Part shown: one piece after another, positions 3,001 to 6,000 of the stretch | How positions within the stretch are numbered: the stretch's first letter is position 1 | Layout of the letters: every line of letters begins with the position of its first letter | Virus record (IMG/VR): IMGVR_UViG_2667527998_000010 | Origin: a virus | Taxonomy: Duplodnaviria > Heunggongvirae > Uroviricota > Caudoviricetes | Reading direction: 5' to 3' (one strand) | DNA: 15,861 nt | Position numbers: made by a program

Positions 3001-6000
3001 GTGCGTATCCAGCCCGCTTTAGCCCACTGGCGATAGACAGCGCGGTTTTTATTGGCGGGGTTCTGTAGCTGGAACTCCGGCAGATAATGACGGGAAATCA
3101 GCATAATGGTTTTACCGACCGGAAAGGCATAGCATACGCTGGAAATATCGCTGGTTGATGATAAGTCCAGCCCCGCGTAACACTCCTGACCGTGTAAATC
3201 TTCCTCCGTGAACGTTCCGGCACACTCAGCCCATGCACCATTACCCATCCACGGGGTAGTCCCCTGACACCAGATATTAAATCGCTTTGTCATCATCTCC
3301 ACCCACTGCGACGGAATACCCCGCGCTTTCTGGATGGTTGAGGCCAGTTTTTCACGATCCACGGAAACATCAATATTAGGGTTCGCCTTTATCCACATCG
3401 CCGGATCATCAACCTCGTTTTCGTCGTCCAGTTCGTAAATCAGTACAAAAATTGAATCGTTAACCTCTTCGCCGTCCAGGATCTGGCAGCAATAATCATA
3501 GTGCTGTTTACAGGCTGAAACGACGTTACTGCCCGATGTGGTAATGGCAAATAACAGCCCTTCGGGACGTGCGCCCATCCCCAGCTCAAGCGCGGAATAA
3601 ACGCCGTTATCGGGGTGTAGGTGGTATTCGTCCACGATGGAAAGACTGGGGTTTGTCCCCTCGATGGTTGCCGCTTTTGCTGCCAGCGGCTTTAACAGGC
3701 TGTTGCTTTTCGGGTGTATCACCTTATGCGCCTGAATATTCACCCGCCTGCGTAACGGTCGGGATAAAAGGCACATCTGACGCGCATTATCAAACACGAT
3801 CCGCGCCTGGTCACGGCTCACCGCTGCGGTGTAGATATCCTGCTGACCGTTCTCCATAATCAGAAACCAGTTAGCCAGAATCGCGGCGGTCGTGGATTTC
3901 GCATTTTTGCGCGGCACTTCGATAAAGGCGCTCGTGTATTTGCGCCGTCCGGTGGCCTTAACCTTAAAGCCGAGGATGCACGCAAAGGCGAACTGCTGCC
4001 ACGGCTCCAGCTCAATGGGTCTGCCACGCATCGGTCCTTTTACGTGCGGGCACACCCTGGAAAAGGCAATAAACCGCTCCACAACCTCACGATCGAACGT
4101 GTAAAGGGGGCTTTTAAGGTCCGAAAAGTACCGTTTAACAGCCTGTTTTAACCGTTTACAGGCCGGAATTTTGCCCGTTTTTACGTCTTCTGCGTACTTA
4201 TTCCAGGCGGTCAAGCTCGTCCTCTTCTTCTGTTTCCGGTGGATTTTTACGGCGGCTTATCGGGTCAAAACCGAGCAAGGAGGCCATTTTTATCATCACT
4301 CTTTCAGCGTCGGATTTTGCGCTTAATGCGGGGTTTCTGCTCTCGCCGCCCTGACTGTTAACAATGCTGAACCCGCGCGCCGCAAGGTCTGCAACGGCTT
4401 TCCGGTAAATGGAGTAGTTGACGCAATACAGTTCCAGATTGCTCCAGTCGGCGGGGGTCAGGTCTCCCCGTTCCGCAAGCTGCCGCGATTTTTCCCGCCA
4501 CTGCTTCACGGCGATATCATCCAGGTAGGCGGGGGCGGGGTTTTCNNNNNNNNNNNNNNNNNNNNNNNNNNNNNNNNNNNNNNNNNNNNNNNNNNNNNNN
4601 NNNNNNNCTGAAAACGCCCCCCACCCCGTCATACAGCCTCATCAGCGATTGCGGAAACATTCCATAACCTCGCGGTCACGGTCGGTTAATCGCTTCGCTG
4701 TGATGCGTTCTGCGCGTCCTGACGCTTTATCTTTATGCCCTGTTTCCTGTGTCTTCCATGCGTCACGCTGCCTTATAAGTCCACGGATAAGGCGGTTTTG
4801 TTCCCGCTCATTCATCAGCGTCATACATCCAGTTATTGCGGTTAGCAGCCCGTTCTTCCTCTTCACGAAATCCACCTGCGGCACGCTTGCTTTTTGTTGC
4901 CGGATCAAGCCATTTCGTTTTCTGGTTATGACACGCCTGGCACAATGGTTGATGGTTCCATTCGGGCCAGAAGAGAACATCATCACCGCCATTAATCGGG
5001 ATAATGTGATCCACCACCACGGCGGGCGTATATATCCCCTTCTCNNNNNNNNNNNNNNNNNNNNNNNNNNNNNNNNNNNNNNNNNNNNNNNNNNNNNNNN
5101 NNNNNNNNNNNNNNNNNNNNNNNNNNNNNNNNNNNNNNNNNNNNNNNNNNNNNNNNNNNNNNNNNNNNNNNNNNNNNNNNNNNNNNNNNNNTGTCCTCGT
5201 CTGGCATCCTCTGCACGCCATGCCGCCCGCCTGTGCTCCTCACACTTGCCGGATTTAACGCGCCTGTTACAGCCTGGTTCTGTGCATCGTCTTAATGGTT
5301 GCCACGGCATCAGTACCCCCCCACATCACGGTAAGCCGTCCAGAGTGCGCCTATCGTCATGGGTACGCGTGTTTTTGCGTTATCCGCGACAATCTGGCGA
5401 TTTTCATACAGGTGAGCGATAAACATCATGCAGCCAATCTTTATGGCTGGGGTGNNNNNNNNNNNNNNNNNNNNNNNNNNNNNNNNNNNNNNNNNNNNNN
5501 NNNNNNNNNNNNNNCTGCCTATGTGTATCTGGCACGCCTCAAGCGATGCGGCAATGTATCCGCTGATTAACTGGTCTTCATCGTCGCCATCGATGCGGCA
5601 ATGGAGTTTCACTTCTTCCAGGGTGATAAGTTCTTCTGTCATTTTTCCGCGCCCTCACGACAAAGAATTTCAAGGCGTGTCCTGGCGGCATCCGGCAGCG
5701 GCTGCCCGATGATATTCAGTACACGCCCCGCCCGCGGNNNNNNNNNNNNNNNNNNNNNNNNNNNNNNNNNNNNNNNNNNNNNNNNNNNNTACTGACCTTT
5801 ATCCGGCTGGTGGCGTTGATGTCCTTCCGGTACCGTATCCAGATCCTTACGGTACCAATCGCCAGCTCTGCGCCCGATGAAATGGCCTCCTTGCTGCTGA
5901 CCATGTTCACGCTTGCCCAGAGTGTGTGACCGTCCTCCCACGTTTCGAGTATTTCGCCGGTTATATCCCTGGTCTGTTTCAGGGTCTGAATCGTTATCCT

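Follow-up and report, generated by a model that had tools for sequence, protein, structure and literature searches.

A small basic gene of the packaging operon between HNH and terS in a near-copy of the satellite EcCIEDL933, and a candidate cos region in the DNA that follows it

The IMG/VR virus record IMGVR_UViG_2667527998_000010 (Caudoviricetes) holds a stretch of 15,861 nucleotides (nt), the whole of which we call the window, and this analysis concerns the interval 4633-4815 within it, between a gene for an HNH endonuclease and terS, the gene for the small terminase subunit. The window carries phoQ at 1-1461 and, for the rest, an island that occupies the same site as in Escherichia coli O157:H7 EDL933. 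In alignment it is 95-98% identical over most of its length to the EDL933 island (locus L002), which is EcCIEDL933, the prototype capsid-forming phage-inducible chromosomal island, or cf-PICI (10.1101/2022.09.08.507074). Over the segment 4608-5044 the identity is 100% with E. coli 2012C-4502 (locus L001) and 98.6% with EDL933. Judged by these alignments, the window is phoQ together with a near-copy of EcCIEDL933, a cf-PICI. A sequence-only reading had proposed that the interval is either a gap containing the cos region or a hidden open reading frame (ORF). We find a gene there and place the most likely cos region just beyond it.

All relevant genes of the island are on the minus strand. The features at and around the interval are listed in the direction of transcription, with lengths of proteins in amino acids (aa).

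4808-5310, minus strand: HNH endonuclease gene (Pfam HNH, PF01844; RefSeq WP_001145905.1 at the corresponding position of L001); 146 aa in relatives, split here by the run of N at 5045-5191

4642-4815, minus strand: small basic gene, 57 aa plus TGA (WP_000174068.1; phrog_3173)

4714-4725, no strand assigned: imperfect inverted repeat GCGTC-CT-GACGC, with 5-bp arms and a 2-nt spacer

4608-4641, minus strand: visible left part of the intergenic region, with the G-run GGGGTGGGGGG (4627-4617) and then CGTTTTCAG (4616-4608)

4546-4607, no strand assigned: run of N hiding about 97 nt, which in L001 (11938-12034) are a variable spacer, the core (GAACGCCTCCTCAAATTTTTATGCACGGGAATTTTTTGAAAAATAATC in L001) and the terS start codon

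4198-4545, minus strand: terS, P27-family small terminase (Pfam Terminase_4, E 1e-23; RefSeq WP_000113645.1 in L001 and L002), 118 aa in relatives, 5' end under the run of N

2553-4214, minus strand: terL, large terminase, 553 aa (Pfam TerL_ATPase and TerL_nuclease)

The small ORF opens at ATG 4815-4813 on the minus strand, continues for 57 aa (MNEREQNRLIRGLIRQRD...MECFRNR) and stops at TGA 4644-4642. The hidden ORF had been described as basic, 56 aa long and ending at 4645; its start, sequence and basic character stand, the length is 57 aa, and 4645 is the end of the last sense codon, directly followed by the stop codon. The ATG overlaps the HNH stop, TGA 4810-4808 (ATGAATGA), so that the two genes share 8 nt; the overlap suggests that the small gene is probably translated by coupling with HNH. 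RefSeq starts the gene three codons earlier, at an in-frame ATG at window position 4824, giving a protein of 60 aa (WP_000174068.1). The profile of phrog_3173, which matches positions 1-57 of 57 in the window protein with an E-value of 6e-37, begins at the methionine at 4815. The DNA of the small gene is 100% identical in L001, the same protein is annotated in EDL933, and RefSeq also annotates the small protein in three diverged E. coli islands. In loci L006 and L008 the Prokaryotic Genome Annotation Pipeline (PGAP) called no gene, yet the homologous frame is open in both.

The substitutions in the small ORF are those of a protein-coding gene. Pairwise ratios of nonsynonymous to synonymous substitution rates (dN/dS) are 0.19-0.49, third-position changes are in excess, and the lineages differ by a 7-codon in-frame insertion or deletion as well as by smaller ones that are also in frame. 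The C-terminal residues RDRE[LVI]xECxRNR are invariant or nearly so, yet their codons differ synonymously. Two 50-aa lineages match phrog_3173 over their full length (E 6e-17 and 2e-25), as the window protein does; the family is without functional annotation. A profile search returned 116 cluster representatives, all named hypothetical, from Escherichia, Citrobacter, Klebsiella, Enterobacter, Salmonella, Cronobacter, Pluralibacter, Hafnia, Xenorhabdus and Proteus.

The small ORF occupies the same slot between HNH and terS, with about 125 nt separating it from terS, in every context examined, from Escherichia to Proteus. Contigs of the Klebsiella/Enterobacter type and from Proteus always have a connector gene, HNH, the small ORF overlapping the end of HNH, a gap of about 128 nt, terS (117-118 aa) and terL (553 aa). 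Those homologues that could be placed in genomes are all in cf-PICI-type islands, and only 3 of 50,697 phage records contain the family: a 16.5-kb induced "phage" that is itself a cf-PICI, a chimeric Klebsiella record and a 1.6-kb fragment. Of 63 distinct upstream sequences, 59 have the frame intact. It lies directly upstream of the conserved core motif described below in 76 of 80 IMG/VR loci; among the other four, one is cut by a contig end and three are truly without the ORF. These three (L128, L153 and L170, all of cf-PICI type) keep the G-run and the cos-like core with no small ORF between HNH and the G-run, and L153 looks like a clean deletion of the ORF from an otherwise typical island. 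By the substitution pattern and the annotations, the 57-aa ORF is a real gene under purifying selection and an already catalogued member of the packaging operon, and to judge from the natural deletions it is dispensable in a few islands, that is, accessory rather than essential.

The apparent gap was created by a run of N. The window has four such runs, at 4546-4607, 5045-5191, 5455-5514 and 5738-5789 (62, 147, 60 and 52 N), which in alignment with L001 stand for about 97, 85, 24 and 5 nt; since they are not true to length, the reading frame is not preserved across them. The N- and C-terminal parts of HNH are out of frame in the window only because the run of N between them adds 62 nt to the true length. 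The same 147-N run joins the N-terminal frame of HNH to the frame of the small ORF, producing a 222-aa ORF (4642-5310) that had rightly been called spurious. The ATG at 4632, which had been taken as the start of terS, opens MTGWGAFS..., a frame that is a 31-codon dead end in the unmasked L001, and this ATG is absent in L003. In L001 terS begins with ATGGCAAGACCACCG (MARPPKAPAYLDD...) at 12026, and the corresponding alignment puts the real start in the window, ATGGCAAGACCACC (MARPPK...), inside the run of N at 4546-4607. The HNH stop and the terS start of L001 are separated by 288 nt; the ORF accounts for 166 nt of these and true intergenic DNA for 122 nt. The gap of about 175 nt reported between HNH and terS was thus an artefact of the false start at 4632, and the 57-aa gene fills it. 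An exact-pattern search of IMG/VR for the window's own unmasked sequence gave no match, and the 9 nt adjoining the first run of N (4545-4537, GAAAACCCC) had no match in any complete E. coli genome.

Within the 122-nt intergenic region (L001 11904-12025), an invariant G-run (GGGGTGGGGG) is followed by GTTTTCAGGAC, then by about 30 nt of spacer that differ from lineage to lineage, and lastly, about 30 nt before terS, by a near-invariant A/T-tract core, AATTTTTAYGCACGGKRATTTTTT. The consensus of the core is ...GCC(Y)CC(Y)CAAATTTTTAYGCACGGKRATTTTTT(T)GAAAA(A)TAA, and it ends 15-23 nt before the terS ATG. In an alignment of 48 distinct sequences plus Proteus copies, the G-run and core blocks are conserved as far as Proteus. 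Both the G-run and the A-run before terS vary in length by single nucleotides between relatives, which marks the region as non-coding. The 48-nt core is 80-96% identical between lineages, in comparison with 56-84% for HNH, the ORF and terS (except for the terS of L001 and L003, at 99%). The core motif is single-copy in each of the IMG/VR matches listed, and it lies in the interior of the loci in all but a few, which gives no information on the ends.

Two particle-derived assemblies break here. vB_KppS-Ant (16,548 bp, described as an "induced prophage") starts 22 nt before terS and ends 13 nt after the G-run; it is without the roughly 69 nt between its ends, core included, and its sequence runs through the whole ORF and the G-run. 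The cf-PICI part of Klebsiella phage P12620-1 extends from terS codon 1 to the last codons of the small ORF. This record (PQ569648.1) looks chimeric: the last 15.9 kb (90,645-106,503) of a 106.5-kb "complete genome" are a cf-PICI, and the DNA that it adjoins at terS codon 1 is unrelated. The breaks in both assemblies fit linear molecules with ends in the under-covered missing stretch. Four Logan contigs of 15.8-16.7 kb, checked for linear forms with cos ends, all span the junction between the ORF and terS and so are uninformative about the ends. Packaged cf-PICI DNA has cohesive ends, as stated, without an end sequence, for KpCIDSM30104 (10.1101/2025.02.11.637232). In the intergenic DNA we found neither a terminator, on either strand, nor a coding-strand promoter, the single promoter-like match being on the opposite strand; Rfam gave no match, and the secondary structure is not significant (z -0.7).

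On the strength of the conservation, the assembly breaks and the analogy with HK97, we place the cos of the island most likely in the 122 nt between the small-gene stop and the terS start, with the core as the best candidate; the cut is predicted to fall near GCCTCCTCAAA/TTTTT. The premise that HNH-type systems have their cos between HNH and terS is sound, as HK97 shows, and the proposal of a cos here was right in principle but displaced, since the best candidate most likely lies after the ORF, mostly outside 4633-4815 and hidden by the run of N. We also looked within 4633-4815 for a conserved cis element that coding does not explain; the conservation there follows codon structure, and the interval is dispensable in the three relatives that have no ORF.

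The inverted repeat at 4714-4725 had been put forward as a 12-bp palindrome. The reverse complement of GCGTCCTGACGC is GCGTCAGGACGC, hence the palindrome is not perfect. The window contains 13 repeats of the same 5+2+5 geometry, and about 120 if spacers of 0-6 nt are allowed; it has 3 perfect 12-mer palindromes against about 4.4 expected. The GCGTC/GACGC repeat is at chance level. It is situated in the variable middle of the small ORF and is absent from L003, L006 and L007.

Divergence between relatives changes abruptly at points that cluster in three places: L001 11240-11280, at the border of the connector gene and HNH; 11692-11727, at the border of HNH and the small ORF; and 11948-12015, in the cos-like core. 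These clusters mark exchange boundaries within the packaging module. At least six reassortment cycles were found between a left block (HNH and the ORF) and a right block (terS and terL).

The island as a whole has the composition of a cf-PICI. In L001 and L002 it measures 14-15 kb and is ordered integrase, helix-turn-helix (HTH) regulator, primase, single-stranded DNA-binding protein (SSB), PerC, capsid, protease, portal, head-closure protein, connector, HNH, hypothetical gene, terS and terL. In the window it extends from about 2130 to an integrase ORF that runs off the end at 15861, which fits the cf-PICI size of about 10-18 kb. Pfam searches with the large window ORFs identified a D5-type primase, a major capsid protein, an S78 prohead protease, a portal, a gp6-like connector, the HNH endonuclease, Terminase_4 and the large terminase. 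The packaging genes are thus accounted for by Pfam matches and RefSeq product names, the adaptor match (Phage_HCP) having been obtained on the L001 copy; for the replication and regulation module, the primase is in the window and the integrase, HTH regulator, SSB and PerC are annotated in L001 and L002. No tail module or lysis genes are among the annotated genes of these two matching islands. HNH stands next to terS and terL, the gene order of an HNH-dependent cos system of the HK97 type. Induction by a helper phage, formation of its own small capsids and transfer by means of helper tails have been demonstrated for EcCIEDL933 (10.1101/2022.09.08.507074).

The major capsid gene of the window (about 9003-7846, minus strand) has an in-frame TGA at 8176-8178, where L001 and EcCIEDL933 have TGG (Trp276 of 385 aa). 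The truncation may mean that this island is defective, or it may be a sequencing error. Directly after terL is a 93-aa ORF (window 2258-2539, minus strand; L001 14041-14322) with a full-length match to phrog_1561, a family of unknown function, and no match to a Pfam or NCBIfam family. In Klebsiella-type islands the position after terL is taken by other cargo, for example a 765-aa protein.

The small gene probably has a published phenotype. When each gene of the EcCIEDL933 packaging module was deleted, transfer was abolished except in the case of "hypothetical gene 1792", whose deletion left transfer "severely affected"; residual transfer remained, replication was normal and complementation restored titres (10.1101/2022.09.08.507074). 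The gene can be located by locus-tag arithmetic. According to PMC5120812, EDL933_1785 of CP-933C encodes 9 kDa of protein and is preceded by 406 nt of intergenic DNA, in an annotation from which the gene for PchE (PerC) is missing. The L002 gene just before that for the capsid (74 aa, 8.6 kDa) is separated from the SSB stop by 407 nt when PerC is disregarded; for the one other candidate of 9 kDa the gap is 370 nt. Counting from 1785, the capsid is 1786, the protease 1787, the portal 1788, the head-closure gene 1789, the connector 1790, HNH 1791, the small ORF 1792, terS 1793 and terL 1794. This count is self-consistent, since it yields nine genes with one hypothetical among them and a cf-PICI has a "9-gene packaging module" (10.1101/2025.02.11.637232). 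We regard it as probable that the small ORF is gene 1792. Compared with EcCIEDL933, the window has the identical protein WP_000174068.1 at the same place between HNH and terS, in an island 95-98% identical and likewise beside phoQ; the window copy differs in its premature capsid stop. The leaky phenotype fits an accessory packaging factor and the three natural islands that have no ORF.

The small protein has a mass of 6.9 kDa and an isoelectric point (pI) of 10.7, and in other lineages the pI is 9.9-11.4. An AlphaFold model has a helix at residues 3-32 (confident over 1-20), a disordered basic linker at 31-44 and a second helix at 45-55. The long N-terminal helix is predicted to be amphipathic, and the short C-terminal helix to end in the conserved RDRE[LVI]xECxRNR. 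The best PDB match, a CHIP coiled coil, is a 14-residue chance match (E 0.11). When 1.84 billion representatives were searched exhaustively with HMMER, 25 clusters were recovered, all of stand-alone proteins of 42-89 aa except for one weak match to a 437-aa protein in five short stretches. We also considered whether the small ORF supplies a part missing from the short TerS, by comparison with HK97; gp1 of HK97 is unrelated to this TerS, and the comparison is uninformative.

We consider it likely that 4633-4815 is a 57-aa gene of the cf-PICI packaging operon whose product is an accessory factor of the HNH-TerS-TerL machine, and that cos lies in the 122 nt that follow. The protein would be a non-essential component of this machine and would raise the efficiency with which the island cos is cut or the island DNA packaged. 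Its target might be cos DNA, contacted through the basic linker and helices, or else HNH, TerS or TerL, contacted through the amphipathic N-terminal helix and the invariant C-terminal helix. Such a mechanism would add a component to the HNH-dependent terminase systems. The small protein is confined to these satellites, and its gene is probably the one in the packaging module whose loss reduces transfer and does not abolish it. The architecture of G-run, spacer and A/T core provides a precise, testable cos candidate for cf-PICIs. With regard to the window itself the result is mainly a correction: a run of N misplaced the terS start, and what looked like a gap is a hypothetical gene already known from a well-studied family of satellites.

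Several points weigh against this interpretation. The choice between DNA and protein as the binding partner is a guess; the AlphaFold model is not compact (mean predicted local distance difference test score, pLDDT, 76; predicted template modelling score, pTM, 0.35); and searches of Pfam, NCBIfam and PDB sequences with the small protein gave nothing significant. Among the 1.84 billion representatives there was no fusion of the small protein to HNH, TerS or another domain. The identity with gene 1792 comes from counting locus tags and not from the GenBank record. For the position of cos, both particle-derived records are imperfect, one being without about 69 nt and the other chimeric, and the change-points in the core are no evidence of DNA ends, as an invariant block attracts homologous crossovers in any case. 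In the literature covered we found no experiment that mapped cf-PICI cos ends and no cf-PICI cos sequence. The TerS of HK97 is unrelated in sequence to the P27-family TerS of the window, so the resemblance between their cos regions, described below, may be coincidental.

Other explanations of the interval are less probable. The packaging role could take a more specific form, in which the 57-aa protein is a satellite-specific factor for cos specificity that binds the left cos arm (G-run and spacer) or the HNH/terminase complex and helps to cut and package only island DNA. If so, it would be one reason why island and helper phage are packaged in a mutually exclusive way. The homologues found, all of them stand-alone proteins in Enterobacterales and of cf-PICI type in each genomic context examined, fit this idea, which we hold only tentatively. 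It is rather unlikely that the ORF is real and its product is a regulator or another factor outside packaging, acting on expression of the late operon or terS or against the helper. The protein is small, basic and helical, its LTDRDREV segment is to our eye (no tool was used) loosely like the first helix of the HTH in LuxR or sigma region 4, some cf-PICIs block their helper phage, and the 122-nt gap before terS offers space for a regulatory site. However, the protein ends 7 residues after this motif and thus has no complete HTH, and no coding-strand promoter, terminator or Rfam match was found in or around the gap. The gene is also inside the packaging module, with homologues found only in cf-PICI-type contexts, and the EcCIEDL933 packaging mutants, 1792 included, left helper-phage transfer unchanged (10.1101/2022.09.08.507074).

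The first of the two original proposals, in the form that 4633-4815 contains the cos cleavage or recognition site, that this site includes the GCGTC/GACGC repeat and that the ORF is incidental, now appears very improbable. HK97-type systems do have cos between the HNH gene and terS, and the last 12 codons of the ORF are so extremely conserved that a cis site could overlap its 3' end. The interval nevertheless evolves as coding DNA under purifying selection, with synonymous differences in those very codons; the repeat is imperfect, of chance frequency and not conserved; the three ORF-less relatives keep the G-run and core; and the particle-derived contigs read through the whole ORF, that of vB_KppS-Ant through the G-run too. 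The notion of a chance open frame in a plain non-coding spacer could appeal to the shortness of the ORF, to the want of a PGAP call in L006 and L008 and to the lack of a Pfam or NCBIfam family. It is effectively refuted by the open, homologous frames in those same two loci, the dN/dS values, the in-frame insertions and deletions, the PHROG family and the conservation as far as Proteus and Xenorhabdus.

The accessory packaging gene and the cos candidate proposed here can be compared with HK97, whose cos ends have been mapped, while the cf-PICI site is a deduction from sequence. Gp74, the HNH gene of HK97, stops 319 nt short of the right genome end and terS starts at nt 50, so that the order is HNH, cos, terS and terL, as in the cf-PICIs with their candidate cos; cleavage of the HK97 cos is HNH-dependent. 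A G-run lies about 45-55 nt before the HK97 cut, CCGCCGCCAAA is at the cut, CCCGATTTTTTT is at +19 to +30 (a T-tract 24-30 nt after the cut) and terS is at +50. HK97 TerS binds 15-29 bp downstream of the cut, on an A-tract (PMC11331095). The cf-PICI region is similar in having a G-run, a GC-rich putative cut region and, counted from this presumed cut, a T/A-tract at about 20-30 nt and terS at about 50 nt. HK97 also has an unannotated 67-aa ORF (NC_002167, about 39411-39614; MKDLIIEYRDGK..., phrog_10282, E 1e-47; 612-815 in our locus L092), whose ATG overlaps the gp74 stop (TAATG) and which ends about 120 nt before the cos end. It occupies the same slot as the cf-PICI small ORF and is likewise coupled to the HNH stop, but it is acidic and not homologous.

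Small satellite proteins that act on the terminase step are also found in other islands, namely Rpp in the classical E. coli PICIs and Ppi in the Staphylococcus aureus pathogenicity islands (SaPIs). Sequence searches with the small ORF returned only its own family, and no direct comparison with Rpp or Ppi was made. Rpp and Ppi bind the TerS of the helper phage and thereby redirect packaging, whereas the cf-PICIs bring their own TerS, TerL and HNH.

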